A stretch of DNA of 64,000 nucleotides from Planctomycetota bacterium (GTDB taxonomy: Bacteria; Planctomycetota; Planctomycetia; Pirellulales; Lacipirellulaceae), in NCBI GenBank assembly GCA_039190745.1, contig JBCCXZ010000012.1, positions 1 through 64,000 of the forward strand, read 5' to 3'. The notes under the pieces are model-generated. The model had not been told where the DNA came from. It saw nothing but the letters and a program-made list of their open reading frames with translations, and did no database searches. The translations under genes and the position numbers were made by a program. Shown here piece after piece: positions 10,352 to 27,654 of this stretch (positions are counted from its first letter, which is position 1; each line of letters begins with the position of its first letter).

Positions 10352-10849
10352 TTAGCCGAGTGCAGGCGGGCCGCGTGCGGGGTACTGCAACGCGAGCCGC
10401 AGCGGCTCGGCAACGTCGGACACCGGCGGCTCGTGCGGAGCCGACCAGAAAGCAGCGGGCACTTCGACCCGCTGCTCAAGAACCCTCGCGAGCGAGAGCA
10501 GCGAGCATAGAGAGCAATCGTCGCAACCTTCTAACGAAACCTGGGCCAAGAGAGCCGGGTCCGAAGAAGGCTCTTCACTCGTGCTTCGGGGAGTTGCCGG
10601 TTGGCCGTGGCCAAAAGGACAGTCGCTGCAGCCACACAGCGAAGCAGACGAGCCCGATTCGTTGCCGCCGCCGTGGTGGGTGCTGTGATGGTGGATGCCG
10701 TGGTGGATGCCCGCCAGTCCGTGCAGCCCATAGCCCAAAGACGCAATACATGCATAGATCCCAATTAGGGACCATACAAGAATCGGCGATGAAGGGCGGG
10801 GAGACACGAGGCCGACGGGAGTAGAAGAACGCAGCGGGCGGGGGGACAA
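10352..10849 (-). CDS. DUF2946-like leader protein (TM segment, His-rich, CxxC, C-terminal ARGPP); start uncertain
   Basis: Hydrophobic segment, GIHHGIHHHSTHH, CGCSDC, CDDCSLC, ends YPARGPPALG*. Confidence 0.7.
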   Translation of the reverse strand: MSPRPLRSSTPVGLVSPRPSSPILVWSLIGIYACIASLGYGLHGLAGIHHGIHHHSTHHGGGNESGSSASLCGCSDCPFGHGQPATPRSTSEEPSSDPALLAQVSLEGCDDCSLCSLLSLARVLEQRVEVPAAFWSAPHEPPVSDVAEPLRLALQYPARGPPALG

Positions 10850-10920: not shown

Positions 10921-10935
10921 TGCAAATCAATTGCA
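10921..10935. promoter_or_regulatory. candidate Fur-family (Zur-like) operator TGCAAATCAATTGCA
   Basis: TGCAA-N5-TTGCA palindrome, differing by 1 nt from the site at 25039 next to the Fur-family gene. Confidence 0.75.
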
Positions 10936-10965
10936 AATAGAGCGGCCCGCCCCCTGCCTCGCCAG

Positions 10966-11439
10966 TTACGCCAGCGGGGCGTCGTCCAACTCCACCAAAG
11001 CACTGATATACAGCAGCGAATTCCGCTGAGCCGGCGTCGGTGCTTGCCGCACCAAGTCGAGCGCCGCCCGCAACACGTCACGACGACTGATCTGCCCCAG
11101 CAAGCGACCCTCTTCCACAACCGGCAGACGCCGGTAACTCGTCAGCAAAAACAATTGTGCGATAGATAACAATTGCGTGTCGGCCGTGATCGTCTGCGCC
11201 TCGGTGTCCATGAACGCCCGCACACGATTGCTCGGCAACTGCTCGTACGCGGCGTCCAGCAGCACGTGCATCGAGCACTTCTCGCTGAACACGCCCAGGT
11301 ACCGGCCGTCGTCGTCCACGACGGGGGCGCCAGAGATACGCTTCTTCAGCAACAGCTGCACAGCGTTCAGCACGTCCATGTCTGGGTGCAGCGTGACGAG
11401 TTTCTTCACCATGAAGTCGCGGGCGGCGAGCTGCTTCAT
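10966..11439 (-). CDS. CBS-domain pair protein
   Basis: ARDFM...ISGAPVVDDDGRYLGVFSE...RRLPVVEEGRLLGQISRRDVL. Confidence 0.9.
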   Translation of the reverse strand: MKQLAARDFMVKKLVTLHPDMDVLNAVQLLLKKRISGAPVVDDDGRYLGVFSEKCSMHVLLDAAYEQLPSNRVRAFMDTEAQTITADTQLLSIAQLFLLTSYRRLPVVEEGRLLGQISRRDVLRAALDLVRQAPTPAQRNSLLYISALVELDDAPLA

Positions 11440-11597
11440 TGCCTGGGGTCCTCCTCGCCCAACAAGCGCGGGCGTCCATCAAGACAAGCGAGACAATAAG
11501 AAAAGGGCCGCGTTGGCTGGTTCTGTGTCGAACTCATTACGTCCGTAATCGGTGCGTCGCGGTTGCTCTATCGTATCCGAGAATCAGTGCCAAGAGA

Positions 11598-11615
11598 TTG
11601 TGAAAACATTCACAG
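11598..11615. promoter_or_regulatory. Rex-like operator (also fits CRP consensus) TTGTGAAAACATTCACAG
   Basis: One mismatch to TTGTGAA-N4-TTCACAA. Confidence 0.6.
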
Positions 11616-11644
11616 CCGCAAACCCGGGTGCAAAGAGCCGTAGC

Positions 11645-11662
11645 TTGTGAAAGAATTCACAA
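11645..11662. promoter_or_regulatory. Rex-like operator TTGTGAAAGAATTCACAA
   Basis: Perfect TTGTGAA-N4-TTCACAA, extendable by GC/GC flanks. Confidence 0.7.
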
Positions 11663-11716
11663 GCCGCTCACACCCGCCGAAGCCACGGGCTGTTCGGAAA
11701 CAGAGAAACCACCGCC

Positions 11717-13522
11717 ATGGACCTTAGCGACGCGCTCGACGCGATTTCCGCGGCGTTCTTCGCCCTCTTGGGCGTCTGGGCCGCACTCGACCGGCGGCAC
11801 TGGTTTCTGCGCTTCGCGGTAGTCTCGGTCTTTCTTTTTGCCTCGCTGCTGGTCCCCGCGTTCGAGATCGTCCTCGAATTCGGCGTCCTGATTTTATTGA
11901 TCAACGCCGGAGTTTGGCTCGCCATGCTCAGCCGAAACTGGCCGCCAAGGCTCTCCATGGAGTCGGCCCTCCTCGCGATGGTCGTCGTCGCGGTGCTCTC
12001 TGCAGTTGCCGGCGCGGTCCCCTCGCTCGACGCCCGCACGTGGGCGTTCTGCATGTCCGTGGCGTGCGGCGGAGCAGCGATCGCGCTGGGCTGCGTGCAG
12101 CTCGTCTTCGGTTCCCGGAGGCTGCTCGTCCGCATCGCTTTTTTCCCCGCGTTTGTCGCCGCCGCACTAGCGTCGATCGCCGTGATCCGGGGCATCAAGA
12201 ACTCAGCCCTCGGACGTGGGTTTACCTTGCTGCCCAACGGGCAGACCCTGGTCGACTTCGCGAAAGACCACGGCGGAGCGTTCGTCCTGGGGACCGTCCT
12301 AATCCTCGCCGCCCTCTTGCTTGCCCGTGAGACGCAGTGGTTCCACAACGCGCCAGAAGACACAACCCCGTCTCGATGGCGGCTCGTCGGCAGCCGCTGG
12401 ACGCTCGCCACCCTCGTCACGGCGATCTTCGCACCGCTCTTCCTGATCTTTCTGCGTCTGCTCTTCCCAACGCCGCTGCCGCCGATCGAACTGCCCAACC
12501 CCAACGGCTACGACGACATCGTCGCCGCCGGGCGGATAGCCCCGCTCAAGGAACTCCAAGGCATCGCCCGAGACAAAAAGTCGGGCGTGCCGCTGAGTAA
12601 AGCGATTGTCAAGCTGGAGCCGGTTTACGAGCTCATCGATCAGTCCCTGGCCAAACCCATAGTCTCACCTCACTACCACCCGAACGAGAGCGAGCAATCG
12701 CGCCGAGATACCGAAGCGGAGCTTTCGGCCTTGATGGCCCTCTCGTTCCGGGCAGACGCCGCCATCCGCCAATCTAAAATCGATCGCTCCGTCGATGACC
12801 TATTCAATATCTTGCGTGTCGGCAGAAGCCTCAAGAACGATATTGGCCACGCTTGGACGGCATCAAGGTGGTCCGAGTCGATCTTCATCAATCTTGTCAG
12901 CTCAGGCCTTCCGCACTTCGACCCCGGAACATGCAGGCAGATCGCACAACAGTGCATCTCGCACGACTCGACCCGCCAGCCAGTAAAGGACCTCACCCAA
13001 CGCCGACGCATCATCGACGACAACCACGACTGGAAGAACAACCTCTGGAACACACTCGCGGATATCTCGGGGGAGGATCACTACGCATGGATAGAGGATT
13101 GGCAGAAGAGCAAGTCGGTCGATATGCGGCTGCTGATCACCCAGCTCGGCGTGCAGGCTTACTACTCCGAGAGAGGCGCACTCCCCGCATCACTCGATCA
13201 ACTCGTCCCCAACTACCTCGACGCGATTCCACTCGACCCCTTCGGTGATGGCCCGCTCCGCAGCGTCCGCGGCCGCCGCTCGCTGACCGTCTACAGCGTC
13301 GGCCGCGACGGGCTCGACCAAACCAACGTCGTCAGTGATACGCCGATCACCGGCGACGACGTATCGGTACCTGCCCCGCGTTACGGGCTCGCCGAGTGCT
13401 TGTGGTTCATGCTCGCCGACCGCGTCGAACCGCTCGCCCGAACCCTCCAGCAGATTCTTGTAGAAAGTGGCCGCCTCATCCGAGATAATGCGGCCAGGCT
13501 CGAACAAGCCAACGTTCCTTGA
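11717..13522 (+). CDS. hypothetical multi-pass membrane protein with a C-terminal soluble domain
   Basis: About 8 hydrophobic segments, then LPNPNGYD and a pseudopilin-like tail LPASLDQLVPNYLDAIPLDPF...YSVGRDG. Confidence 0.7.
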   Translation: MDLSDALDAISAAFFALLGVWAALDRRHWFLRFAVVSVFLFASLLVPAFEIVLEFGVLILLINAGVWLAMLSRNWPPRLSMESALLAMVVVAVLSAVAGAVPSLDARTWAFCMSVACGGAAIALGCVQLVFGSRRLLVRIAFFPAFVAAALASIAVIRGIKNSALGRGFTLLPNGQTLVDFAKDHGGAFVLGTVLILAALLLARETQWFHNAPEDTTPSRWRLVGSRWTLATLVTAIFAPLFLIFLRLLFPTPLPPIELPNPNGYDDIVAAGRIAPLKELQGIARDKKSGVPLSKAIVKLEPVYELIDQSLAKPIVSPHYHPNESEQSRRDTEAELSALMALSFRADAAIRQSKIDRSVDDLFNILRVGRSLKNDIGHAWTASRWSESIFINLVSSGLPHFDPGTCRQIAQQCISHDSTRQPVKDLTQRRRIIDDNHDWKNNLWNTLADISGEDHYAWIEDWQKSKSVDMRLLITQLGVQAYYSERGALPASLDQLVPNYLDAIPLDPFGDGPLRSVRGRRSLTVYSVGRDGLDQTNVVSDTPITGDDVSVPAPRYGLAECLWFMLADRVEPLARTLQQILVESGRLIRDNAARLEQANVP

Positions 13523-13802
13523 CAACCGAATGGGGGGCGTTATCGCAGCGCTGATAGCCGCCGACCTACGCGTCGGCGGTGGTGCGTGAGAGGTCAATCG
13601 CAAACCCCAGTATCGAGAATCCCAATACTACGCCGCGAAAAACCCTGCACGAGATTACGTAAACCCCGAGTCGTTTTGCCCGCCGCTCGATAGCTGCGAC
13701 TCTACGAGTCGCTGGCGAACCCAAGACCGATGCGGTCAAAAGAAAGCGACTAGTGTCACGCCAGAGCGTGATCGCTGTTTTCACGCCAAAACTAAGCAGC
13801 GG

Positions 13803-14915
13803 CTACAGCCCCTCGTTGAGCCCCTGCAAGTCGGCCGGCACAAACCGCCCGTCCTTCCGCAGCAGCTCGCCGTCGAACCACACCTCGCCGCCGCCGTAGT
13901 CCTCCCGCTGGATCAGCACCATGTCCCAGTGGATCTGGCTGCGGTTGCCGTTGTCGGCGATCTCGTAAGCCTGGCCGGGCGTGAGGTGGAAGCTGCCGCC
14001 GATCTTCTCGTCGAACAGCGTGTCGAGCATCGGGTGACGCACCCGGTTGTTCGTGCCTAGCGACCACTCGCCGCAGTACCGGGCGCCTTCGTCGCACTGG
14101 AAGATCGCGTTCAGGTCGGCCGTCCGGTTCGAGGTCGCCTTCACGATCTCGCCGTTCTTGAACTCCAGTTCCACGTTCTCGAACACCTTGCCCTGATACT
14201 CGCTCGGCGTGTTGAACCGGATCACCCCGTTGATGCTGTCCCGCACCGGCGCGGTGAACACCTCGCCGTCGGGGATGTTCCGCTCCCCGTTGCAAGGGAT
14301 CACGGGGATGCCCTTGATCGAGAACTCCAGCTCGGTCCCCTCGGCCGTGATCCGCACATGGTCGGCCGCCTCCATCCGCTTGACCAGTGGCTTCTGAGCC
14401 TCGGCCATCGCCTTGTAGTCGGCCGTGCAGACGTCGAAGAAGAAGTCCTCGAAGGCCTCGGTGCTCATCCGAGCCGCCTGGGCGAACGAATCGGTCGGGT
14501 AGCGCAGCACGACCCACTTCGTCTCCGGCACCCGCGACTCGCCGTGCACGGGCTTCCACCAGTGCTCTTGGTAGAGGTCCATCCGCTCCTGCGGCACGTC
14601 AGCGAACTGCGTGGCGTTCGAGGAGCCGCGGATGGCGATGAAGGCGTCCATCGCGTCCATCCGCTCCTTCTCGAACCTGCCGGCGAGCTTCATGCTCTCC
14701 TCGGTCGCATGGCGGTAGAGCGACCGGAGGACTTCGTTACTCTGCCACTTTGCCAACGGCACAGCGCCCCGCTTGGCAGCCCCTTCGATGAGCGCACAAA
14801 CCAGCGCCGGCGAGGGCAGGTCTTCCGCTTCGATGAGGATCTTCTCACCACCCTTCAACTGGCAGCTGTGGTCGAGAAGGAGGTCGGCGAGCGTCTGGAT
14901 GCGGGGGTCGCGCAT
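13803..14915 (-). CDS. M29-family (AmpS/PepS-like) aminopeptidase
   Basis: MRDPRIQTLADLL, NIPDGEVFTAP, GEWSLG, LFDEKIGGSFHLTPG, SQIHWDMV. Confidence 0.9.
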   Translation of the reverse strand: MRDPRIQTLADLLLDHSCQLKGGEKILIEAEDLPSPALVCALIEGAAKRGAVPLAKWQSNEVLRSLYRHATEESMKLAGRFEKERMDAMDAFIAIRGSSNATQFADVPQERMDLYQEHWWKPVHGESRVPETKWVVLRYPTDSFAQAARMSTEAFEDFFFDVCTADYKAMAEAQKPLVKRMEAADHVRITAEGTELEFSIKGIPVIPCNGERNIPDGEVFTAPVRDSINGVIRFNTPSEYQGKVFENVELEFKNGEIVKATSNRTADLNAIFQCDEGARYCGEWSLGTNNRVRHPMLDTLFDEKIGGSFHLTPGQAYEIADNGNRSQIHWDMVLIQREDYGGGEVWFDGELLRKDGRFVPADLQGLNEGL

Positions 14916-15077
14916 GCGTGGGTGTCTCAATAGTGGCAAGCTGCAGGAACCGACGGAATCCCTACGATGCTACGGCTTTTGGAGGCCTTCCACAATCGGA
15001 CGAGAGCGCCCCGCGCGTTATAATTCAGGTGAGCCGGCACGAAGTCGGCGCAGCACGCTTTGCAGAACGAGAACCCC

Positions 15078-17000
15078 ATGGCTACCGGCGCCCCTTCCCC
15101 CCCCGGGACCGACCACAACGCCCCGTCGTTCGCTGAGACTGCGCTCACCCTCGGCGGCAAGAGCGCCGACGAGGCCCGCCGCACCGGAGCGATCGACAAG
15201 GCAGACGACCAGGTCGAAGCGCTCTTCGCACCGCAGTACCAGACGGTCAACAGCCCGGCCCACCGCGTGGTGTGGGAGAAGGGCGCCCCGGTGTCGTTGT
15301 TCCAGAGCGAGCCCGCCGCCGCCCCGCCCGAGGCCCAGCGGGTGATGGACGACTCGGTCGAGGTCGTCCGCCGCCACCGCCGCGGCGCCACGCTCCACGA
15401 CGAAGCCGGCAAGATCCGCCCCGAGGTGATGCAAGACCTCGGCGAGGCCGGCTACTGGGGACTGCTGGTCGACCCGCAGTACGGCGGCCAGGGGACCCCG
15501 TTCGCCGCGTTCGCGCCGTTCCTTACCCGAATGGCCACCGTCGACCCCACCATCGCCGGCCTGGCGTCGGTCCACGGCTGCATCGGGGCAGTCGACCCCG
15601 TCAGCAGCTTCGGCAACGACGAGCAGAAAGAACGGTTCCTGCCCGACCTGGCCAGCGGCCAGCGGCTGAGCGCCTTCGCCCTCACCGAGCCCGGCGCCGG
15701 CAGCGACCTCACCGCCCTCCGCACCCGCGCCGTCTTAGACGGCGACCACTACGTCGTCCACGGCGAGAAGCTGTTCATCACCAACGTCGTCCCGGGGCGC
15801 ACCATCGGCTTGGTCTGTCTCATCAACGACAAGCCCGCCGTGCTTGTCGTCGACCTGCCGGCCGAAGAGTCCGAACAGTTCCAGATCCGCAAGTACGGCC
15901 TCTGGGCGCTCAAGCACACGCACAACCAGGGCCTCGTGTTCAACGGCCTCCGCGTGCCGGCGGAGAACCTGCTCAAGCCGCCCCGCGGCAACGGCCTGAC
16001 CATTGCCTACCACGGCCTGAACCTCGGCCGCATCGCGCTCTGCGCCAACGCCGCGGGCACGATGCGGATCATGCTCGCCAGCATGATCCCGTGGTCCAAC
16101 TTCCGCGTCACGTACAGCGAGCCGATCGCCCGCCGCGAGCTGGTTCAGCGTCGCATGGGGCAGCTCGCCGGGCTGATCACCGCCAGCGATGCGCTGGTCG
16201 CCTGGTGCGCTCAGCTCATCGACCACGGCTACCGCGGCGAGATGGAGTGCACGATCGCCAAGGTGTTCGGCAGCGAGGCCCAGAAGCACGCGGCCATCGA
16301 ACTGTTCATGAAGACCCACGGCGGCCGGTCGTTCCTGCACGGCCACCTGCTGGGCGACAACGTCCACGAGTACCTCGCCCCCTGCATTTATGAGGGCGAA
16401 GGCGAGATGCTCAGCATGGCGTTCTTCAAGTCGCTCGTAAAACACCACGGTGTGACGTACTTCGAGCCGGTCGGTAAAGCCCTCGCCGCGGCGGGCATCA
16501 AGAAGCCCAACCCGCTGAACCCCGCCCACGCCTGGGCCCTGCGGAGCGTCGCACTGCCCTTCCTCAAGTGGATGGTCGCCCGTCGGCTTGCCCCCGCGGC
16601 GAAGACCGCCATGCCCGAGATGCCCCCCGCGCTCCGCGGCCACGCCGAGTTCGCCTGCGACGCCCTGCAGCGGATGGCCGTCGAAATCTCCGGCACGATG
16701 CAGAAATTCCAGCTCAAGCTCGCCGACCGGCAGTGCCGCATGGCCGAGCTCTCGCTCCGCTGCCAGGCGCTCATCACGGTGCTGTGCACCAGCCTCTACG
16801 GAGCGCGTCAGGAAGACGAGCTCAGCCGCGAGGCGGCGGACATCTTCTGCCAGGAGCAACGCCAGCAGTACATAGGACGCCGGCCCTCCAACCGCTACTA
16901 CAAGCAGGTCACGCAGCTCGGCGCCGCGATCGCCGAAGGCGGCTACCGGCCCATCGAGGGTCTGCAGCCGGATGAAGTGATGATGCCATACGAGGCGTAG
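15078..17000 (+). CDS. acyl-CoA dehydrogenase family protein
   Basis: AFALTEPGAGSD, GEKLFITN, LNLGRIAL, IYEGEGE. Confidence 0.9.
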   Translation: MATGAPSPPGTDHNAPSFAETALTLGGKSADEARRTGAIDKADDQVEALFAPQYQTVNSPAHRVVWEKGAPVSLFQSEPAAAPPEAQRVMDDSVEVVRRHRRGATLHDEAGKIRPEVMQDLGEAGYWGLLVDPQYGGQGTPFAAFAPFLTRMATVDPTIAGLASVHGCIGAVDPVSSFGNDEQKERFLPDLASGQRLSAFALTEPGAGSDLTALRTRAVLDGDHYVVHGEKLFITNVVPGRTIGLVCLINDKPAVLVVDLPAEESEQFQIRKYGLWALKHTHNQGLVFNGLRVPAENLLKPPRGNGLTIAYHGLNLGRIALCANAAGTMRIMLASMIPWSNFRVTYSEPIARRELVQRRMGQLAGLITASDALVAWCAQLIDHGYRGEMECTIAKVFGSEAQKHAAIELFMKTHGGRSFLHGHLLGDNVHEYLAPCIYEGEGEMLSMAFFKSLVKHHGVTYFEPVGKALAAAGIKKPNPLNPAHAWALRSVALPFLKWMVARRLAPAAKTAMPEMPPALRGHAEFACDALQRMAVEISGTMQKFQLKLADRQCRMAELSLRCQALITVLCTSLYGARQEDELSREAADIFCQEQRQQYIGRRPSNRYYKQVTQLGAAIAEGGYRPIEGLQPDEVMMPYEA

Positions 17001-17096
17001 TGGTCCGCGCCTTGGATTCTGTTCTACACGGTCAGCCCCACGAGAGTTCTAGGCAGTCACTCTGAACGACAACTGCAGCCATCGAGCTAGCTCAGT

Positions 17097-18401
17097 CTAC
17101 TCGTCCACAGGCAACTCTTTGACCTGGAGCTCTCCTACACGCAAATCCCCGTACAGAACCTTCGCCACCGCCGGTTCGTCGGCTTGACCGTCGGGTTTAG
17201 CGTGCCACCAGGCAACGATCTTGTCTGAGTCGCCGAACCGGACGCCTTCACCGCGGTAGCGCCACACCTGATCGGCGGCAATCTGTTCGAGGAACATCGC
17301 ACCCCGAGCGAACGATTGCTGCAGCTGCATGCCGATCTTCAGCCGCTCGAACCCTTCCGCCTCCAGGAGGTCCGGGCGGTTGAGCGCGTCGGCGAGCTTC
17401 TTCATCACGGCCGGTCGCTGCTGCTTGTCCCGAGCAGCCTCGAGCACCTGCTCCTGGATGATCGAGACCAGCGTCATGGTATTGAACCGCGCCGGAAACT
17501 CATCGTCGTTCAGCTTCACGATGAAGCGGATCAGGCCAACGAATTCCTCCTGCCCGCCGCCCTGGAGGTCGACCTCGAAACTCCGTAGCGAGTACCCCTC
17601 GGGGGGTTCTAGGCTGAAGAGCGACTCGTCGACCGGGGCGTTCCAAGCGAAGTCGGTCATGGTCATCCGGCTACCGGATTGAGTCGTATTGCGGGATTCG
17701 CTGAAGAGGATCTTCAGTGGCAGATTATTTTCGGGGTCGATCCAAATGGTGCAGAACTCTCCCTGGCGATCCACCAAGAATTTCAACGCGGACTGTTCTC
17801 CCACCTGCTCCCGGCCGACGTACTCCGCCGACTCATCGGTGAGTTTGCGGAACTCTTCGATCAGGTGCTTGTGCTGCGGTTCGCCGGGGCCGGCCGAGAG
17901 CTCCAAGGCATTGGCCTGCTTCACCGCCGGCATAAGCAACAGGCCTTTTTCTGCCCGGAAGTCGTACAGCTGCACGAAAGACGTGGGGCCGACCTCCATC
18001 TCCATCCTCATCCAGGCCGGTTCTAGCAGCGCGATCTGGCTGGCGACCTCCACTTCGTCATCCGAGTAGATCGTCAGCCGATAAGTCGCGGTCCGGATCT
18101 CCTGGAAGTGATCCAGCATCGCGGCGAAGGCGGCGCCCTGGCCGCCGTTCATCTGCACCAACAACCACCCCGCTGCGATAAGCACAACCAACACAGCGAC
18201 GGAAAGCACACGGCTCATGACTAATCCTCCGACGAGTCCAGGAAGGGGCGGAGGAGAGACCTCCTCCGGAGTTTGCGCCAGCTGCGCGACCAAACGCTTG
18301 TTCAAATCCTCGGGAGGCCCCTCGGGCACAGCCTGTCCAGCGAAGGCCTCGACCCACTGGTCGACGGGGTCAGGCGATGGTTCGGGATGATTTCGGTTCA
18401 T
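17097..18401 (-). CDS. putative anti-sigma factor with an extracytoplasmic LolA-like domain
   Basis: Overlaps the ECF gene end. Single TM, then IWIDPENNLPLKI...DFAWNAPVDESLFSLEPPEGY. Confidence 0.65.
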   Translation of the reverse strand: MNRNHPEPSPDPVDQWVEAFAGQAVPEGPPEDLNKRLVAQLAQTPEEVSPPPLPGLVGGLVMSRVLSVAVLVVLIAAGWLLVQMNGGQGAAFAAMLDHFQEIRTATYRLTIYSDDEVEVASQIALLEPAWMRMEMEVGPTSFVQLYDFRAEKGLLLMPAVKQANALELSAGPGEPQHKHLIEEFRKLTDESAEYVGREQVGEQSALKFLVDRQGEFCTIWIDPENNLPLKILFSESRNTTQSGSRMTMTDFAWNAPVDESLFSLEPPEGYSLRSFEVDLQGGGQEEFVGLIRFIVKLNDDEFPARFNTMTLVSIIQEQVLEAARDKQQRPAVMKKLADALNRPDLLEAEGFERLKIGMQLQQSFARGAMFLEQIAADQVWRYRGEGVRFGDSDKIVAWWHAKPDGQADEPAVAKVLYGDLRVGELQVKELPVDE

Positions 18402-18906
18402 CGTCGCACCTGTTCGTAGAATCCATGGGCCCCATGAGTTCGCGCAGCTTCTTCTTCGCCCGGTGCAGCCACACGGCGGATTGCTTCGCCGTGCAGTGCA
18501 GTACGCGGGCAATTTCTTCGTGACTGAGCTCTTCGATTTCTCGCAGCAAGAAGACCTCGGCCTGTTTTTTCGGGAGTTCCGACAAACAGCACCGAAGCCG
18601 CTGGACCTGTTCCTGGGTATCCATCCGGTGATCGGGCCCCGGCCCGGGCGCCGGCGGCTCGTACGGTTCGGGCAGTTCCTCGGTGCCGCGGTAACGCCTC
18701 CTGAGTCGGTCCATGGCCCTGGCAGTGGCGATCCGACGTAACAGCGTCGACCAGTTCCTCACCTCATTACGCGACGCAAAACGCATCGCCTGCATGAATG
18801 TCTCTTGATAGCAGTCTTCGGTGTCTTCACGATCCGAGAGCAGCCTGTACAGCGTGCGCCAGACCTCTCGGCCGTGCTGCTCCACGATGGCCGACCAATC
18901 GATCAC
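18370..18906 (-). CDS. ECF-type RNA polymerase sigma factor
   Basis: DTEDCYQETF (region 2) and LPKKQAEVFLLREIEELSHEEIARVL..WLHRAKKKLR (region 4). Confidence 0.9.
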   Translation of the reverse strand: MIDWSAIVEQHGREVWRTLYRLLSDREDTEDCYQETFMQAMRFASRNEVRNWSTLLRRIATARAMDRLRRRYRGTEELPEPYEPPAPGPGPDHRMDTQEQVQRLRCCLSELPKKQAEVFLLREIEELSHEEIARVLHCTAKQSAVWLHRAKKKLRELMGPMDSTNRCDDEPKSSRTIA

Positions 18907-19123
18907 GGCCCACTTGCCCGTCGGGTTTTGTTTCTCTATGCCGCACCCGGCTCGGTTTGCCGGGAGATTAGTGCCGCACGCAATACAGTAGTCGCATTGC
19001 CGAGGGAGTTATTGCAGCGACGCTAGAAAAAAACCCTGGCAGTCCACCCGTGGAACTCAACCGAGTGTATGTCCTATAACTGTTCTTGCGTTCCTGAATC
19101 GAGTGCTTTGAGCCCCCAGTACC

Positions 19124-19858
19124 ATGACGATTTCTGTGATCCTCCCCGCCGCCGGATCCAGCCAACGGTTCGGGGACAAGAACTACAAGAAGCCCTTTGC
19201 CCCGCTATCGGGCCGGGCCGTGTGGCTCCACTCCGCCGAGCGGTTCCTCAACCGCAAGGACGTCGTGCAGGTGATCGTCTGCATCGCCGACGACGACCGT
19301 GAGGAATTCCAACGCAAGTTCGGGGCGAACATTGCCATCCTCGGCGTCGACGTCGTTAGCGGCGGAACCGAGCGGGCCGACTCGATTCAGAACGCCCTTG
19401 CCAAGGTGAAGCCGGAAGCGGAGTTCGTCGCCGTGCACGACGCGGCTCGTCCCTGCCTCGCCGACAAGTGGGTCGATCGAGTGTTCGAGGCCGCCGCTAA
19501 GAGCGGCGCCGCGATTCTCGCCACACCGGTCGCCGCCACCGTCAAGCGCGTCGACTCCGGCCGGGTCGCCGAGACCGTCGACCGACGCGGCCTCTGGGCC
19601 GCCCAAACCCCGCAGGTCTTCCGACGCGAGCTGCTGGAGAAGGCCTACGCTTCTCGCAAAGGATCGAGCGCCACGGACGACGCCCAACTCGTCGAGGCCG
19701 TTGGGGCCGAGGTAGCGGTCGTGGAGGGCTCGCCGCTCAACCTGAAGATCACCACCCGCGACGACCTGAAGCTCGCGGAGCAGGTGCTCAAGGTGCTGCC
19801 CCGTCCGAAAGCCGACGGCATGGCGAACCCGTTTGCCGGCGACGACCTCTGGAGATAG
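19124..19858 (+). CDS. ispD: 2-C-methyl-D-erythritol 4-phosphate cytidylyltransferase
   Basis: ILPAAGSSQRFG, GGTERADS, VHDAARP, AQTPQVF, TDD, NLKITT. Confidence 0.95.
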   Translation: MTISVILPAAGSSQRFGDKNYKKPFAPLSGRAVWLHSAERFLNRKDVVQVIVCIADDDREEFQRKFGANIAILGVDVVSGGTERADSIQNALAKVKPEAEFVAVHDAARPCLADKWVDRVFEAAAKSGAAILATPVAATVKRVDSGRVAETVDRRGLWAAQTPQVFRRELLEKAYASRKGSSATDDAQLVEAVGAEVAVVEGSPLNLKITTRDDLKLAEQVLKVLPRPKADGMANPFAGDDLWR

Positions 19859-19962
19859 GGCTCTAGCGGCAGAGTGACATCAAGGCGACTGGCATTTCCT
19901 CTGCTGAGGGATGCTCTACGATAGGGCTCCCCTCACTCGGCTACACAAACCACATACCTGCT

Positions 19963-21252
19963 ATGAACCTGCTCGAAGACCTCCGCTGGCGCGGCGTCGT
20001 CCACCAGACCACCGATGAGGGGCTCGGCGATTGGCTCGAAGCCCAGCCGCGGACGGTGTACGTCGGGTTCGATCCCACCGCCGACAGCCTGCACGTCGGC
20101 AGCCTCCTGGGGCTGATCACGCTGCGGCGGTTGCAGCGGGCCGGCCACCGGCCGATCGCCGTTGTTGGCGGGGCAACCGGCATGATCGGCGACCCCAGCG
20201 GCAAGAGTGCCGAGCGGAACCTCCTCTCCAAAGAGCAGCTCCAAGCCAACCTCGACGGCATGGCCGCCCAGATGCGGCGGTTCCTCGACTTCGACTGCGG
20301 CGACAACTCCGCCCTGCTGCTGAACAACCACGACTGGACCGGCCCCTGGAGCTACCTCGACTTCTTGCGCGACGTAGGCAAGAACTTTCCGGTGAACGTG
20401 ATGCTCGCCAAGGACTCGGTGAAGAGCCGACTGGGTCGCCTCGAAGACGAGAAGCAATCCGGCGGTATGAGCTACACCGAATTCAGCTACATGCTGCTGC
20501 AGGCGTACGACTTCGTGCAGCTAGCGCGAGAGCACGGCTGCGAGCTGCAAGCCGGCGGCAGCGACCAGTGGGGCAACATCACCGCCGGCATCGATCTGGC
20601 CCGCCGCATGGACGGCCGCCAGCTCTACGGGTTCACCTGGCCGCTGCTAACCAAGAGCGACGGCTCGAAGATGGGCAAGACCGAGAGCGGCGCCGTCTGG
20701 CTCGCCGCCGAGCGCACGAGTCCTTACGAGTTCTACCAATACTGGATCAACACCGAAGACGCTGACGCCGGCAAGTGCCTGCGGATGCTCACCGACCTGA
20801 GCCGCGAGGAGATCGAATCGCTCGACGCCGCTCGCGAGTCCGAGCCCGGCAAACGCGCCAGCCAACGCCGGCTCGCGGAATCACTTACCCGGCTGACCCA
20901 CGGCGACGAGGGGCTGGCCGTCGCCGAGCGGGCCACCGCCATCTTCTTCGGCGCCGAGATCAGCGACCTCAACGACAACCAGCTCGGCGAGATCTTCGCC
21001 GACGTGCCCAGCAAGCAGCTCGACAAGCAAACGCTCTCCGCGGGGCTGACGCTGATCGACGCGCTCGTCGAGGCCGGCCTCGCCAAGAGCAAGGGCGACG
21101 CCCGGCGTACCGTCCAGCAAGGAGGCGCCTACGTCAACAACCGACGGGCCGAGGGCATCGAAACCACGCTCACACCGAAGCACCTCGCGGGCGAGACCAC
21201 CATGGTCCTCCGCAGCGGCAAGAAAAAGTACGCGGTGCTCCGGTTCCAGTAA
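19963..21252 (+). CDS. tyrS: tyrosine--tRNA ligase
   Basis: YVGFDPTADSLHVG, QAGGSDQWGNI, KMGKT, C-terminal S4-like domain. Confidence 0.97.
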   Translation: MNLLEDLRWRGVVHQTTDEGLGDWLEAQPRTVYVGFDPTADSLHVGSLLGLITLRRLQRAGHRPIAVVGGATGMIGDPSGKSAERNLLSKEQLQANLDGMAAQMRRFLDFDCGDNSALLLNNHDWTGPWSYLDFLRDVGKNFPVNVMLAKDSVKSRLGRLEDEKQSGGMSYTEFSYMLLQAYDFVQLAREHGCELQAGGSDQWGNITAGIDLARRMDGRQLYGFTWPLLTKSDGSKMGKTESGAVWLAAERTSPYEFYQYWINTEDADAGKCLRMLTDLSREEIESLDAARESEPGKRASQRRLAESLTRLTHGDEGLAVAERATAIFFGAEISDLNDNQLGEIFADVPSKQLDKQTLSAGLTLIDALVEAGLAKSKGDARRTVQQGGAYVNNRRAEGIETTLTPKHLAGETTMVLRSGKKKYAVLRFQ

Positions 21253-21273
21253 GCCGCCCGCAGGCGGAGCGGT

Positions 21274-21669
21274 TCACTCCAGTGTCAGTCCCCAAAGACT
21301 GCCGGGCTTTTCTGTCGTCAGCCGGACCGTGCCGACCAACCGATCGCCCTTGAGTTCTGCAGCGAGCTCCCGCTCCGAGAGCAGCCTCCACTCCAAAGGC
21401 CCTCGAGCTACCCGGCGGACCTCTCCACGCCCCCCGCTGATCGGCCCCTGGTAATCAAGGTAGTGCAAGCGGTGGTCGGGCAGTTGGCGGGCCGGGACCG
21501 TCTCGGGAGCCGACGGGTCGCCGCTCGGCAGGCCTCGCAGCCAGCCCTCCGGGAGGGTCAGCAGCTCCCAGGTCCGCAGCACGCCGTCAGATTCGAGCAT
21601 CAAATCCCAGTGATCCGCTCGCCCCGATCCAGTCGGCATCTTGTGTCGGAGCAGCACAAAACGCTCCAC
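21274..21669 (-). CDS. stand-alone LigD 3'-phosphoesterase-like domain protein
   Basis: RFVLLRH...HWDLMLE...LRTW...LPDHRLHYLDYQG. GTG start with AGGA SD. Confidence 0.7.
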   Translation of the reverse strand: MERFVLLRHKMPTGSGRADHWDLMLESDGVLRTWELLTLPEGWLRGLPSGDPSAPETVPARQLPDHRLHYLDYQGPISGGRGEVRRVARGPLEWRLLSERELAAELKGDRLVGTVRLTTEKPGSLWGLTLE

Positions 21670-21764
21670 GCGGCTATCCTCGCGTACGGGCCGTGTCTCG
21701 GTGAACCTTGACCCCAAACCCGGGGTCACTTACAAGAGCGTACAGAAGCAGCCGACAATCCGCG

Positions 21765-21839
21765 ATGTACTCCGTCATGCACCCCGCGTTAGACCTACTC
21801 CTAGGCCTCCTATTAACCCCCGCAGAGGGCGGGTCCTAG
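21765..21839 (+). CDS. leucine attenuator leader peptide MYSVMHPALDLLLGLLLTPAEGGS (alternative start 21777)
   Basis: Seven Leu codons within nine (TTA, CTA, CTC, CTA, CTC, CTA, TTA), directly upstream of a terminator and leuA. Confidence 0.85.
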   Translation: MYSVMHPALDLLLGLLLTPAEGGS

Positions 21840-21873
21840 GGTTGTTCTGCGGAATCACGACCGTATACACCAG

Positions 21874-21904
21874 ACCCTGGGGCCCGAAGCCCCGGGGTTT
21901 TTTT
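21874..21904 (+). terminator. attenuator intrinsic terminator of the leuA leader
   Basis: ACCCTGGGGC-CCGAA-GCCCCGGGGT followed by a T-run. Confidence 0.88.
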
Positions 21905-21977
21905 GTGGATCGAACTTCTCCAATTCACATGCCGCTTCTCACGCTAAGCACTCTGACGCGGCCCAAAGGAAGAAACG

Positions 21978-23561
21978 ATGGCTGAGCCCAGCCCGCATCC
22001 AACCGGATCCGACGATCAGCGTCGGATTGTGATCTTCGACACCACGCTCCGCGACGGCGAGCAGTCCCCCGGCTGCAGCATGAACCTGGATGAGAAGCTT
22101 GAGGTGGCCCAAGCTTTGGTCGATTTGGGGGTCGACGTCATCGAAGCCGGTTTCCCCATCGCTTCGCCAGGTGATTTTGAGGCGGTCCGCGAGATCGCCC
22201 GCTCGGTCCGCGGCAATACTATCTGCGGACTCGCACGGTGCAACGACAAAGACATCGACCGCGCCGCCGAGGCGCTCGCCGACGCACCCGACGCCCGCAT
22301 CCACGTGTTCCTCGCCACCAGCGCCATCCACCGTGAGTTTAAGCTCCGGATGGACAAGGCAGAAATCATCCAGCGGGCCACAGCAGGCGTCGAACGAGCC
22401 AAGGCCGCTTGCGACAACATCGAGTTCTCGCCCGAAGACGCCGCACGCACGGAGGTGGACTTCCTCTGCGAGGTGGTCGAGGCCGCTATCGCCGCCGGGG
22501 CCACCACCGTCAACATCCCCGACACGGTCGGCTACGCCACGCCCTCGCAGTACGGCGGCACAATCAAGACGCTCATCGACCGCGTGCCCAACATCGGTCA
22601 GGCCGTCATCAGCGTCCACTGCCACAACGACCTGGGGATGGCCGTCGCCAACAGCCTCTCGGCGGTCGAGAACGGCGCCGGGCAGATCGAGTGCACCATC
22701 AACGGCATCGGCGAGCGGGCCGGCAACTGCTCGCTTGAAGAAGTCGTCATGGCCATGCGCACCCGGAGCGACTACTACGGCGTCGATACCGGCATCAACA
22801 CGCAAAGGCTCGTCCCTACTAGCCGGCTCGTGACCGGCATCACCGGCATGCTGGTGCAACGAAACAAGGCGATCGTCGGCCGCAACGCCTTCGCGCACGA
22901 GGCGGGCATCCACCAAGACGGCATGCTCAAGGAACGCACGACCTACGAAATCATGCGGCCCGCCGATGTCGGTTTCGCTGACACCGATCTTGTTCTGGGC
23001 AAGCACAGCGGGCGCGCCGCCCTCGCCGACCGGGCCGCCGCTCTGGGCTACCCGCTTGAGGGTGAGCAGCTTGCCCGGGTCTTCGAGCGTTTCAAGGAAC
23101 TCGCCGACAAGAAAAAGGAAGTCTACGACGGAGACATCGTCGCGCTGGTCGAAGACCGCTCCGAAGAGGACGGCCGCGACGAATGGCGGCTGGAGTCCTA
23201 CGAAGTGCAGGCCGCCCACGGCCAGACGCCCACCGCCACGATCACGCTCCGTCGAGATGAAGACTCACGCACGGCCACGGTCTCCGCGGGCGACGGCCCG
23301 CTCGACGCGCTCTTCCGGGCAATCGAGGATCTGATCGGCAAGAGCGTCGTGGTACGAGACTTCCGCGTCCAGAGCGCCACCCGCGGAAAAGACGCCCAAG
23401 GCGAGTCGGTCGTCGAGGTCGAATACCAAAACCGACTCTACCGCGGCCGCGGCGTCTCGACCGATACGGTCGAGGCCGGGGTGCGGGCCTTCATCCACGC
23501 GCTCAACCGCGTCGAGGCGGGCGCCGGGCAGCCGCTGTCCGACCGACCTGAGAGCGTATGA
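21978..23561 (+). CDS. leuA: 2-isopropylmalate synthase
   Basis: [42 protein letters not shown], and a C-terminal regulatory domain with GDGPLDA. Confidence 0.96.
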
Positions 23562-23587
23562 GTCGGCCGCCGCATCCTACTCGACGG

Positions 23588-24070
23588 CTAAGAGACGAAA
23601 GCAAGCCAGTAGAAACACCAGCCGGTCACGGCAGTCAGCACCATGTCGGCCGCCGCGATGCGGGCCCAACGCAGGTGGAACCGACTGTGCTCCGCCGGCA
23701 TCGGAGGGTTCGGGAATTTCCGCAACGCCCGAATGAGCACCAACGGCCACAACACGACCGTGCTGATCGCGAACACGAGATGCACCTGCAGTGCCCGCCA
23801 CACGGCCTGCGAAGCCGACCCGCCGATCTCCCCGGAGGCGCGGTCCTCCCAGCCGAACACCCGCACGTCGACCTCAAACGCCCCCACGGCCACGGCCAGC
23901 ACCGCCCCCAGCGCTACCTGTACATTGCGGTGCAACACATACCGCCCGCGGCGAGCCTGCAGAACACTCCACCAAAGCACCGGCAGCACCGCGAACATGG
24001 CCAGAAACACCACGTCGGTCATGAACGAGGCGCGGGTGCCGAGGAATCCATCCCACCCTGGGTAACTCAT
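23588..24070 (-). CDS. DUF420-family membrane protein
   Basis: Four TM segments with spaced His residues (LHRNVQ, VHLVFA, HSRFH). Begins GFLGTRAS. Confidence 0.75.
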   Translation of the reverse strand: MSYPGWDGFLGTRASFMTDVVFLAMFAVLPVLWWSVLQARRGRYVLHRNVQVALGAVLAVAVGAFEVDVRVFGWEDRASGEIGGSASQAVWRALQVHLVFAISTVVLWPLVLIRALRKFPNPPMPAEHSRFHLRWARIAAADMVLTAVTGWCFYWLAFVS

Positions 24071-24272
24071 GCTCGGCCTAGCGACTGGAACTCGGGGCAT
24101 CAATCTGCTGGCTCGCGGGAAACTTCCGCATTGCCGCGGTTGGACCGAGGCCGGCCAGCCGCTAGTCTGGCCATCGGCTCCTGGCGCGATACGGAATCAG
24201 CTGGAGATTAATCGCTTCGGGATGCGCCGGTCGCAAGGCCCCAAACAGTACCGGCGCCCCAAGAAAGAACCA

Positions 24273-24358
24273 GGCCGAGTGGCGGAATTGGCAGACGCTC
24301 TGGACTTAAAATCCAGTGGGGGGTAACCCCCGTGAGGGTTCGAGTCCCTCCTCGGCTA
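24273..24358 (+). tRNA. tRNA-Leu(TAA)
   Basis: Acceptor GGCCGAG/CTCGGCT, anticodon arm CTGGA-CTTAAAA-TCCAG, long variable arm GGGGG-TAA-CCCCC, T-loop TTCGAGT. Confidence 0.95.
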
Positions 24359-24476
24359 CTAGACCAAGAAATTGAACGGCTCGAATCGCCATATGGAAAG
24401 CTCCAACGCCTTATGGCAACAGCGGTGTTGGTCGGGGGATAACGCTCAACGCTTCAGCGATTGCGTATCTTCCGCT

Positions 24477-24920
24477 CTAGCCTGACTCGCAGTGACCACA
24501 GTGGCCGCGGATCATAATCTCGGTGACAGTACCTAGCTTCTCCCGCCGACCGCCTCGCGAAGGCTTAATCTGAAACGAATAATCCTCCAGGCAGGTCAGC
24601 CGACCGCAATCGACGCACATAAAGTGTGGGTGGGTAAACTCCGACTTGCTATCCGCACCTCTCAGCTCAAACCGTCTAGTATGATCCCCTAGGTCAAGCC
24701 TCGTCACGAGGCCAGCGTCCGCGAGCTCGTTCAAGCAACGAAAGAGCGTGGACTGATCGAACCCGAAGTCGCTCAGGGATTCGACGACTTCGGCGTGGGT
24801 CATCGGGGATGCCTCCGACGCCAGCAGCCTCAGAACCGCCACCCTTGCGGCAGTGGCGCGCAGGGCCACGTTCCGGAGGGTCTGTTTCGCCCAAGTTGCG
24901 TTTTTCTTGGGGAGCTTCAT
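24477..24920 (-). CDS. Fur-family transcriptional regulator (Zur-like by context)
   Basis: LRATAARVAVL, STLFRCLNEL, HPHFMCVDCG, GHCGHC. Confidence 0.9.
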   Translation of the reverse strand: MKLPKKNATWAKQTLRNVALRATAARVAVLRLLASEASPMTHAEVVESLSDFGFDQSTLFRCLNELADAGLVTRLDLGDHTRRFELRGADSKSEFTHPHFMCVDCGRLTCLEDYSFQIKPSRGGRREKLGTVTEIMIRGHCGHCESG

Positions 24921-24978
24921 GCAATCTTCCTGCGGGACGAGAAGACTTTTTTAGAGCTTAGCCAAGCGCCAGCCCACT

Positions 24979-24993
24979 TGCAATTGCATTGCA
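24979..24993. promoter_or_regulatory. candidate Fur-family operator TGCAATTGCATTGCA
   Basis: TGCAA-N5-TTGCA in the divergent fur/COG0523 intergenic region. Confidence 0.75.
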
Positions 24994-25038
24994 CTTGCTG
25001 ATTTCGCCGTTTTGCCAAGACCATCATACCCGCGCTAT

Positions 25039-25053
25039 TGCAATTCAATTGCA
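25039..25053. promoter_or_regulatory. candidate Fur-family operator TGCAATTCAATTGCA
   Basis: Perfect 7-1-7 palindrome overlapping a possible -35 (TTGCAT) of the COG0523 gene. Confidence 0.8.
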
Positions 25054-25134
25054 TTAAGGTAGCTTGCGTTTAGATATTGTCCCATTAGGGATATAACTTC
25101 CGTCCAGAGCGAGCGATTCATCAGCGCATTGCCC

Positions 25135-26379
25135 ATGCAGAAATCACTCCCAGTCACGGTCCTTTCCGGCTTCCTCGGCGCCGGCAAGACAACGGTCCTC
25201 AACCACGTGCTCGCCAATCGATCGGGGCTCCGTGTCGCGGTGATCGTCAACGACATGAGCGAGGTGAACATCGACGCCTCGTTGGTCCGCGGCGGTCAGT
25301 CGACCCTAAGCCGCACCGAAGAGAAGCTCGTCGAGATGACGAACGGGTGCATCTGCTGCACGCTCCGCGAAGACTTGCTCCAAGAGGTAGCAGAACTAGC
25401 CAGGGACGGCCGCTTCGACTACCTGCTGGTCGAGTCGACCGGCATTAGCGAGCCGCTGCCGGTGGCAGAGACCTTCACGTTCGCTGACGAAGAGGGCGAC
25501 AGCCTGTCCGACGTGGCTACGCTCGACACGATGGTGACCGTCGTGGACGCCGGCTGTTTCCTGAGCGACTTCGGTTCGTCCGACGATCTGGTCGATCGAA
25601 AGATGGGGCTTAGCGACGAGGACGAACGCAATGTCGTAGACCTGTTAACCGATCAGGTTGAGTTCGCGAACGTGATCCTGCTCAATAAGTACGACCTGAT
25701 CGACGAGCCGGACAAGCTGATGCTGCTGGGCGTGCTGCGGAACCTCAACCCGAAGGCGCGGATCATCGAGACCCTGCACGGCAAGATCGACCCCGGAGCC
25801 ATCATGGGGACCGGGCTCTTCTCGATGGACGAAGCCAGCGCCCAGCCCGGCTGGCTGGAGGTGCCACGCGGCGAAGAGCAGCCCGAGACCGACGAGTACG
25901 GCATCACGAGCTTCGTCTACCGCGCCCGCCGGCCGTTCCACGCGGCCCGATTGTGGGATCGACTCAACCAGGAAGGCGGCATCCTGGCGGGCGTCCTGCG
26001 GTCGAAGGGGTTCCTCTGGGTCGCCTCTCGGCACGACTACGCATACGTCTGGGCCCACGCGGGGGTCTCGGTGCAGTTGAACCCAGCCGGCTTGTGGTGG
26101 GCGGCGGCGCCCGACGACGAGTGGCCCGAAGACACTCCCGAAAACGCCGAGCTGCTGGAAGATATCCGCAGCGAGTTTGATGACCCATTTGGCGACCGAC
26201 GCCAAGAGATCGTATTCATCGGCATCGAAATGGACCGCCCGGTCATCGAGTCGATGCTGGAAGACTGCCTCCTGACCGACGAAGAGCTTGCATTCGGACC
26301 GGACCGGTGGGTCGATTTCGAAGACCCGCTGCCCACCATCGAGTGGCAGGACGGGGAGCCGATCGAGGAGAACCTGTGA
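25135..26379 (+). CDS. COG0523/CobW-family G3E GTPase metallochaperone
   Basis: [63 protein letters not shown]. Confidence 0.95.
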
Positions 26380-26978
26380 GTCGTCTGGAGTCGATAGCGC
26401 CGGAATCGATTGAGAATGAAGCCTCCGATCACGGTACGGCCAACCCCTGGGCGGACCGGGCGGGGCTTGTAGCCTCGGTGGCGTGCGCCATCCATTGCGC
26501 GGCGATGCCGCTTGTGATCGGCTACCTGCCGATGCTTGGGTTGAGTTGGCTCGCGGACGAGTCGTTCCACAAGGTCATGGCACTGGTTTGCTTTGGCCTG
26601 GCGGCGTTGGCGTTCTTGCCGGGGTGGCGCAGGCATGGGAGCCTCGCCCCGGTGCTGGTTGGATCGACCGGGGTGGTTCTGCTGGCGGTCGCGGCCTTCG
26701 GGCTCGAATGCGATGGCTGCGCGACCTGCTCGGAAACTAGCCTAGCGGCCGCAGAAGAGCCAGTTTGCAGCGCAACGGATTGTGCCCATTGCGCAGAAGC
26801 AGAGCCGGAAACCGTGGGCGAAGCCGCGGCTGTCGGCTCGATCGCGTGGTTTACGCCGCTGGTAACTCCACTCGGGGGGGTGCTGCTCGTTGCCGGGCAC
26901 TTGACGAATCACCGGAAATCGTGCGCCTGCTGCGGAAAAGGCTGTCCGCATGATTCCGAGGCGTCTGCCGAATCATAG
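26376..26978 (+). CDS. MerC-domain membrane protein with a Cys-rich insertion
   Basis: [37 protein letters not shown] overlap with the GTPase stop. Confidence 0.85.
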
Positions 26979-27065
26979 CCGAAAATAGACGGCCTTTTTG
27001 CACCCAGTTCCTCGCCCAGGCAACCTCCCAGGCGCTGTGAAAAGCCTTATTCTTCCTTGCCTAGA

Positions 27066-27098
27066 AGGCTCTGCTGCAACACAATTGTAGTAGAGCCT
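27066..27098. promoter_or_regulatory. extended palindrome containing operator TGCAACACAATTGTA (27075-27089)
   Basis: AGGCTCTGCTGCAA-CACAA-TTGTAGTAGAGCCT. The core has 1 mismatch to TGCAA-N5-TTGCA. Confidence 0.65.
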
Positions 27099-27107
27099 AA
27101 TCTACTT

Positions 27108-27539
27108 ATGCACCGCATTCTCAACAAAACCGCCGCTTGGTTAGCACTAGCGCACGTTGTGCTAGTAGGTGGTCTCGGTACGGGCCTGCACGCCTTGCTA
27201 GGCTGCGAGCATGGGTTGACCGAAAACTGCTCCGCCGCCTGCTGTGTGTCCGCCAAGTCGACGAGCGCTAGCTGTGAAGACTGCGTCTACTGCAGGCGGG
27301 CGGCTGAAAAGCAAAACAGCAACGACCAGCAAGAAGAAACCCTCGTCGCCGATGCGGGCCAGTGCTGCGGCGGTTGCGCCGTCTGCGATCTGCTGGCCCA
27401 GTATCAGAGCGTGACGCCTTTCGCCGTCGAGCCGCTCGCGATCGAGTTGGCCTCGGGCGAAGCGCCGATACAGCACGAGAACGCGGTGATCGCCGCCGCG
27501 ATCCGTCTGTCCCATTCTCGCGGCCCACCCGTGGCTTGA
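27108..27539 (+). CDS. DUF2946-like leader protein (TM segment, Cys-rich, CxxC, C-terminal SRGPP)
   Basis: N-terminal hydrophobic segment with GLH, CEDCVYC, CCGGCAVC, ends SHSRGPPVA*. Confidence 0.75.
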   Translation: MHRILNKTAAWLALAHVVLVGGLGTGLHALLGCEHGLTENCSAACCVSAKSTSASCEDCVYCRRAAEKQNSNDQQEETLVADAGQCCGGCAVCDLLAQYQSVTPFAVEPLAIELASGEAPIQHENAVIAAAIRLSHSRGPPVA

Positions 27540-27590
27540 CCTTCGTTGCCTTCGCTCCGAAGGCTCGTCCGTTCAGTGCCGCTCTGCCAT

Positions 27591-27605
27591 TGCAACACTC
27601 TCGCA
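27591..27605. promoter_or_regulatory. candidate operator TGCAACACTCTCGCA
   Basis: One mismatch to TGCAA-N5-TTGCA, upstream of the first permease. Confidence 0.5.
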
Positions 27606-27654
27606 AGGAGTTGTGCGCGGGCACGCGGCGTCTCCGCCCGCTTATGGGTCACAG

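Follow-up and report, generated by a model that had tools for sequence, protein, structure and literature searches.

The operators of Fur-family regulators are 7-1-7 inverted repeats found near the promoters of the regulator and of its targets, and to our knowledge transcription-factor operators are almost unknown in Planctomycetota. In the Zur regulons known from E. coli, B. subtilis and Anabaena, the repressor is a member of the Fur family that carries two CxxC pairs and acts on such a 7-1-7 operator, the regulator gene is autoregulated and shares a divergent promoter with a COG0523 gene, and the targets include COG0523, ZIP, ZepA, a HisI paralogue and DUF1826. The same traits are predicted for the system analysed here in a Planctomycetota bacterium of the Lacipirellulaceae, or are seen in its relatives. 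The system was recognised in a stretch of 64,000 nucleotides (contig JBCCXZ010000012.1, positions 1 to 64,000; hereafter the window), and its two central elements are the palindrome TGCAA-N5-TTGCA and a minus-strand gene for a 147-amino-acid Fur-family protein at 24477-24920. On comparative evidence from sequence, we consider it probable that the palindrome is the operator of this protein and that the protein acts as a Planctomycete (Pirellulales) Zur. Unlike the AT-rich Zur boxes of described systems, the proposed operator reads TGCAATT-N-AATTGCA.

HisI paralogues and DUF1826 were placed in Zur regulons or clusters by Haas 2009 (PMC2770081). The ZepA (All3515) clusters treated in a 2024 report (PMC10957091) provide the closest parallel. 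According to that report, zepA genes of the PVC superphylum have in their vicinity a gene of the FUR family that "likely" encodes Zur, a Lacipirellula ZepA proved specific for zinc when assayed in E. coli, and the motif search yields sites for cyanobacteria, proteobacteria and one verrucomicrobium (Luteolibacter) only; TGCAATT-N-AATTGCA is not among the motifs given there, and supplement S1 contains no Lacipirellula upstream sequence. Several genomes related to ours have the same kind of cluster, in which a ZepA-family PEP-CTERM gene stands beside the same Fur-family gene, a COG0523 gene and other PEP-CTERM genes. In contrast to these clusters, no ZepA-family gene was found in the host genome, which is 95% complete: model NF040463 gave no match, although it was silent in control genomes too, and tblastn with three relatives found nothing at E values up to 1e-3. 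The PEP-CTERM proteins of the window have only the sorting tail in common with ZepA. A literature search retrieved no description of a Planctomycete Zur or Zur operator. What the comparison outlines is a predicted regulon of the Zur type, whose regulator clade is specific to the lineage, whose operator sequence is new and which has unusual members.

A scan of the window located exact copies of TGCAA-N5-TTGCA at positions 10921, 24979 and 25039, together with one-mismatch copies at 27075, 27591 and 27665. These six matches compare with an expectation of 1.25 (standard deviation 1.07), and none of 100 shuffles contained six or more. All but the last had been listed in a first-pass annotation of the same DNA, which read the five as one operator series; our reading of the open reading frames (ORFs) agrees with its placing of all five between genes, two of them between the Fur-family gene and the COG0523 gene. 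As a series of operators, the list is borne out for the three exact copies, which are strong, and not for the other two, one of which is decayed (27075; score 5.6) and the other a chance match (27591; score 10.8). Scores here and below derive from a 23-column matrix trained on 16 sites that lie within 3.4 kilobases (kb) of regulator relatives in eight other genomes.

The core of the strong sites is the 7-1-7 palindrome TGCAATT-N-AATTGCA, set in an extended consensus of CAyTTGCAAT-N3-ATTGCAArTG, and the free flanks of the matrix are conserved too, with C-A-y-T ahead of TGCAA. The copy at 25039-25053 (TGCAATT-C-AATTGCA) is perfect and has the best score of the genome (33.3), and those at 24979-24993 (TGCAATT-G-CATTGCA; 31.5) and 10921-10935 (TGCAAAT-C-AATTGCA; 30.2) each contain one mismatch; all three fit the architecture of Fur-family operators. 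They are located 59-82 base pairs (bp) from start codons. The 24979 copy is 59 bp upstream of the regulator ATG, while the 25039 copy is 76 bp upstream of the TTG start of the COG0523 gene and 82 bp from its ATG, both sites falling inside the 208-bp gap between the two genes. The 10921 copy follows a CBS-domain gene and stands 72 bp ahead of a minus-strand ORF (10352-10849). Relatives hold sites at the relative position equivalent to 24979, and this copy is probably the autoregulatory site of the Fur-family gene. A promoter-like pair accompanies the 10921 site on the minus strand (-35 TTGACC, 10912-10907; -10 TAGACT, 10889-10884), with the operator just upstream. A scan of 24850-25200 for sigma-70-type promoters found nothing, and therefore no overlap of operator and promoter is claimed there.

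The remaining copies were judged by comparison with G001, a genome of the same genus (G- and L-numbers denote related genomes and loci, G000 being the host, and C-numbers denote host contigs, the window being contig C12). The copy at 27075-27089 (TGCAACACAATTGTA) precedes the ATG at 27108 by 19 bp. We regard it as a decayed but homologous site because the orthologous position in G001 is intact, with a perfect core (TTGCAACACAATTGCAA; score 24.0) before the orthologous gene (78% identity). The TGCAA and TTGCA words of the 27591 copy are not conserved in G001, and for this reason that copy is taken as a chance match. The 27665 copy scores -3.2.

The matrix, whose sites came from other genomes, was then applied to the whole host genome (3.89 Mb in 125 contigs, 65% G+C). 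Five sites stand out, with scores of 28.5-33.3: the three strong copies in the window and two elsewhere, at C43:29312 and C5:43923. All five are intergenic, and the next-best site scores 17.7, which is close to the maximum of 17.5 in the reversed genome. The C43 site precedes an operon encoding a Pyr_redox_3 flavoprotein, a 202-amino-acid protein and a second ZigA-like COG0523 GTPase, and the C5 site is followed by genes for a thioredoxin-like protein and DUF1826.

The association of the motif with the regulator was examined in related genomes, which are non-independent samples in all of the counts that follow. Regulator relatives are encoded in 544 of 552 candidate stretches from species genomes and are present in 21 of 41 related genomes. 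Across the 80 best loci of regulator relatives (864 kb), 93 sites scored at least 20, the threshold for a site, whereas the reversed sequence had none; at least one was present in 50 of the 80 loci. Windows of 330 bp upstream of the regulator held a site in 43 of 79 cases, compared with one of 140 control windows taken 2.5 kb away, and the sites cluster 60-200 bp upstream of the regulator relatives. Furthermore, in a blind count of all 1,024 5-mer inverted repeats at spacings of 1-9, TGCAA-N5-TTGCA ranked first, occurring in 30 of 79 upstream windows and in none of 140 controls.

For counts in whole genomes, the loose 10-base pattern TGCAA-N5-TTGCA proved too unspecific (6.7 copies per genome with the regulator and 4.15 without) and was dropped, and a strict 12-base pattern, TGCAAT-N3-ATTGCA, was therefore adopted. 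In the set of 41 relatives, the 21 genomes that carry the regulator contain 25 copies of the strict pattern (at least one in 14 of the 21), the 20 without it contain four, and the backwards control yields two. Three of the 12 strict-pattern sites examined in relatives (L121, L122 and L130) scored below 18 on the full matrix and were left unannotated. It is from this association that we infer the binding protein to be the adjacent Fur-family regulator.

The regulator itself matches the Pfam FUR profile (PF01475) over residues 19-114 with 43.8 bits against a cut-off of 23.1, which places it in the Fur family. A profile search of the PDB retrieved 26 Fur-family chains, comprising Fur, PerR, Zur and Nur structures, at E values from 2e-15 to 1e-3. 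Nine residues are invariant in 19 relatives: H42, D79, H97, H99, C102, C105, C110, C141 and C144. These include two CxxC pairs (C102/C105 and C141/C144), an HxH (H97/H99) before the first pair, and an extra cysteine, Cys110. Metal ligands may be provided by the Cys4 site as well as by H42, D79, H97, H99 and C110. PMC4219657 gives Cys88, in the sensing site, and Glu111 as residues of E. coli Zur; judged by spacing only, the invariant Cys110, five residues past the first CxxC, would fall at the spacing of Glu111. The nearest relatives of the protein belong to Pirellulales (Bythopirellula, Lacipirellulaceae, Pirellulaceae and Aeoliella), and the clade is found mostly in Pirellulales and other Planctomycetota.

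The metal is readable from the neighbours of the predicted operators and not from the regulator sequence alone. Neighbourhoods were annotated with Pfam for 59 of 112 picked ORFs at the loci of relatives, with regulator-overlapping ORFs and duplicate loci set aside, and for 33 of 55 picked ORFs around strict-pattern sites. ZIP transporters are divergent from the regulator or stand beside a site at nine loci, and COG0523 genes lie beside sites at no fewer than ten loci, that is, at least 10. All six of the PEP-CTERM neighbours tested were confirmed as members of the ZepA family, and the operator is directly upstream of zepA at L026, L029 and L025. A HisI paralogue, a phosphoribosyl-AMP cyclohydrolase of 126 amino acids, is encoded at L024 (G028) some 150 bp downstream of a strong site (L024:1165; score 32.8). 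The predicted regulon, then, holds zinc uptake or zinc-sparing genes, as is characteristic of the Zur subfamily.

The distal targets, which the matrix scan covered in the host genome and which were sampled elsewhere through exact-pattern matches only, are syntenic in other genomes. In G001, a site is followed by Pyr_redox_3, a 241-amino-acid protein and COG0523, and in G012 by a thioredoxin-like gene, COG0523 and Pyr_redox_3. The first-pass annotation had proposed a Zur-like box, bound by the adjacent regulator and joining the loci at 10.9 kb and 25 kb, and had expected it to be enriched near metal genes rather than scattered. Both proposals gain comparative support, the former from the sites at 50 of 80 loci, the blind scan and the zinc-related neighbours, and the latter from the ZIP, ZigA-like COG0523 and ZepA-family genes beside sites. 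Its suggestion of a genome-wide matrix scan was fruitful in so far as two of the outstanding sites lie outside the window. The targets it expected, znuABC, folE2 and ribosomal-protein paralogues, fared differently: unlike in described Zur regulons, the host ZnuA-family gene has no site and FolE2 was not found in the host genome, and no search was made for the last of the three.

If the protein behaves as the characterised Zur repressors do, a zinc-loaded dimer would occupy the 7-1-7 palindromes and repress the genes behind them. Under zinc scarcity the sites would be vacated and the genes switched on. In the host, derepression would extend to the regulator itself and the COG0523/MerC-like operon, and to an operon running from 10.8 to 7.4 kb that encodes a small His/Cys protein, a DUF1559 protein and two PEP-CTERM exoproteins. 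Outside the window, it would reach the Pyr_redox_3 flavoprotein, the 202-amino-acid protein and the second COG0523 GTPase on C43, as well as the thioredoxin-like/DUF1826 cluster on C5.

With a Zur box of this kind, zinc regulons could be read in hundreds of Pirellulales genomes, and the proposed operator would provide the regulatory connection so far missing from the ZepA clusters of 2024. It would also suggest testable zinc roles for families that are at present blank, namely the short DUF1559 proteins, the DUF2946-like Cys/His proteins, a new PEP-CTERM family and the MerC-like permeases. The same sites occur in cultured relatives (Aeoliella, Novipirellula herctigrandis and Bremerella cremea), which makes experiments feasible.

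A number of observations weigh against the assignment of a Zur function to this regulator. No NCBIfam equivalog was reached, the best being Fur with 38.6 bits against a cut-off of 146, the Zur equivalog model NF008646 gave no match at E values up to 0.01, and in the PDB profile search Fur structures score above Zur structures. Unlike E. coli Zur, the protein has no cysteine 15 residues ahead of the first CxxC, the spacing of Cys88, a comparison made by spacing and not by structural alignment. Within the host, the ZnuA-family gene (C28), a ZIP gene (C6) and a third COG0523 gene (C50) have no operator, their best scores being below 0. Thirty of the 80 loci lack a site of 20 or more, mostly those with regulators of 45-50% identity, and the loose pattern separates genomes with and without the regulator weakly. 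The core columns of the matrix were picked through the window consensus and are thus not independent, so that only its flanks and the blind inverted-repeat scan are; furthermore, the gene boundaries are crude ORF picks.

Neighbours that look like soft-metal or efflux functions also tell against zinc as the signal. The same regulator and operator could respond to Cu, Cd, Ni, Co, Fe or redox state and serve detoxification or the economy of another metal, which we consider unlikely. Such a reading would accommodate the small Cys-rich proteins, the MerC-like protein and the ArsP_1 permease (of the Cu/Zn-efflux type, similar to SO_0444 and SaoE) that lie in or beside the regulon, and the presence among the targets of thioredoxin-like genes and a flavoprotein whose tail is Cys-rich. 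In the distant locus L115 a second site is flanked by a CbiM cobalt transporter, and the sequence classification of the regulator is itself ambiguous. Against it, however, zinc is indicated by every one of the following: the ZIP genes at nine loci, the two ZigA-like COG0523 GTPases, the six ZepA-family proteins, the HisI paralogue and DUF1826. In addition, ZepA homologues were zinc-specific in the assay described in PMC10957091.

A second alternative, that the palindrome is bound by another protein and that the adjacent Fur gene is merely one of its targets, appears quite improbable. The binder could be the Fur paralogue on C20 (167 amino acids), which reaches 83.9 bits on Pfam FUR, or an unrelated factor; indeed, four genomes in which no regulator relative was detected carry one strict match each, which counts against the adjacent regulator as binder. 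For two of these four exceptions, however, a contig end is no more than 810 bases away, and a regulator gene there may be unassembled. The motif is some six times commoner in genomes that carry the regulator clade, it occupies the interval 60-200 bp upstream of the genes of this very clade at 43 of 79 loci, and a 7-1-7 inverted repeat is the operator architecture of the Fur family. Finally, chance matches or a dispersed repeat without regulatory role would account for 27591, and for 27075 in its present form, which are no better than background, but this reading is effectively refuted for the three strong sites, given that no shuffle reached the match count, that more than 10 bits separate the five top sites from the reversed-genome maximum, and that the sites are conserved across genera and all intergenic.

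With the zinc-responsive Zur retained as the preferred reading, the genes behind its predicted operators deserve a closer description. Past the 10921 operator, four minus-strand ORFs form a putative operon. The first (10352-10849, minus) encodes a small His/Cys-rich membrane protein of 165 amino acids, which is a paralogue of the 143-amino-acid protein encoded at 27108-27539 (BLASTP E 7e-06); the two share a helix at the N terminus, a CxxC...LL motif and the ending RGPP. The best match of these small Cys/His proteins to DUF2946 (PF11162) spans the full profile at an E value of 0.2, with 12.8 bits against a cut-off of 23.7.

The second ORF (9479-10237, minus) encodes a short prepilin-like protein of the DUF1559 family that carries a methylation motif at its N terminus (Pfam SBP_bac_10, positions 1-62, and N_methyl). 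The same short type follows sites at L023, L031, L039, L041, L119, L126 and L129. There are 41 DUF1559 matches in the host, only two of which are linked to an operator, the one in the window and C5:47800-48495. Both of these match positions 1-62 of the 268-position profile, while most of the other 39 are full length; the operator-linked proteins thus look like a distinct short subfamily. A literature search found no paper that pairs DUF1559 with zinc. A full-length DUF1559 gene (C28:2047-2952, plus) is divergent from the only ZnuA-family gene of the host (C28:218-1354, minus).

The last two genes of the putative operon encode PEP-CTERM exoproteins of a family here called A4. That at 8493-9338 (minus) gives a weak PEP-CTERM match, and that at 7355-8380 (minus) has a dockerin-like segment and a VPEP tail. 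Further members are encoded at L035:12524-13414, L025:5766-6704, L025:4997-5701, L031:4269-5291 and L023:9907-10848. Their alignment reveals an HxD after the predicted signal peptide in most members, together with PGF, WDG, a conserved His and SDP(F), and no Pfam or NCBIfam match was obtained beyond the sorting tail. We also considered whether the A4 proteins are relatives of ZepA, an idea that was dropped because a profile-profile comparison with the ZepA family aligns the sorting tail only. The order is conserved in G008, where a CBS gene is followed by a site (score 30.9), the small protein, DUF1559 and PEP-CTERM. The small Cys/His protein, the short DUF1559 protein and the PEP-CTERM exoproteins are a recurrent cassette for which we know no counterpart function.

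On the plus strand, the 25039 operator precedes the COG0523 gene (25129-26379; Pfam cobW and CobW_C), which encodes a putative zinc metallochaperone. As with ZigA (COG0523 subfamily 1), both operator-linked GTPases of the host match model NF038288 over its full length; unlike ZigA, they stop just short of the 600-bit cut-off, with 589.1 bits for the window protein and 593 bits for that on C43, and are therefore named ZigA-like only, while the third COG0523 gene of the host stands apart from any operator. Directly 3' of the COG0523 gene lies a gene for a MerC-like membrane protein (26307-26978, plus; Pfam MerC, 76 bits), whose true start probably lies around 26376 and overlaps the stop of the COG0523 gene. 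The protein is a candidate metal permease, and MerC-like genes recur beside sites at L029, L031, L039, L040 and L079.

The decayed 27075 site is followed by the gene for the small Cys-rich membrane protein of 143 amino acids with the RGPP end (27108-27539, plus) and, downstream of it, by a gene for an ArsP_1-type permease (27613-28809, plus; Pfam ArsP_1, 131.5 bits). This permease scores 189.5 and 187.5 bits on the NCBIfam models for the SO_0444 and SaoE metal transporters, below their cut-offs of 325 and 300. In G001 a good site precedes the same pair of genes.

Taken together, these products might constitute a Planctomycete apparatus for the extracellular capture of zinc. It would comprise the DUF2946-like Cys/His protein, the short DUF1559 protein, the exoproteins of the new PEP-CTERM family (with ZepA in relatives) and the MerC-like inner-membrane permease, co-expressed with the two ZigA-like chaperones and the flavoprotein/thioredoxin pair. 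We offer this proposal tentatively, as something possible rather than probable. If true, a function would be assigned for the first time to a part of the very large DUF1559 family, and a route of zinc import independent of ZnuABC would be described.

Beyond the ArsP_1 permease gene, the interval 28806-35518 of the window encodes a DUF58 protein, a transglutaminase-like protein, a MoxR AAA protein, a DUF6746-like ORF and, at 33962-35518, another ArsP_1-type permease of greater length. Neither this interval nor the region before this permease yielded an operator, the best score being below 0 in each case. At L024, three PQQ_2 beta-propeller genes are divergent from the regulator.

The second Fur-family gene of the host (C20:31198-31557; L037:1435-1938, minus), whose product is 167 amino acids long, adjoins purB and is the more typical of the two, with a generic Fur/PerR-like profile. 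Relatives of the window regulator are also encountered outside Planctomycetota, in Verrucomicrobiota (L085, L092 and L106) and in Deltaproteobacteria (L115), and weaker sites (21.9-25.8) occupy the same upstream position at L085, L092 and L115. A variant resembling a direct repeat, TTGCAA-N5/6-CTGCAAT, is seen at the autoregulatory position among L061, L070, L072, L097, L029:8010 and L023:8850, and variants of this kind occur at some of the 30 loci short of a strong site. At some loci there are arrays of three to four overlapping half-sites, which recall the reading of Fur boxes as arrays of hexamers.

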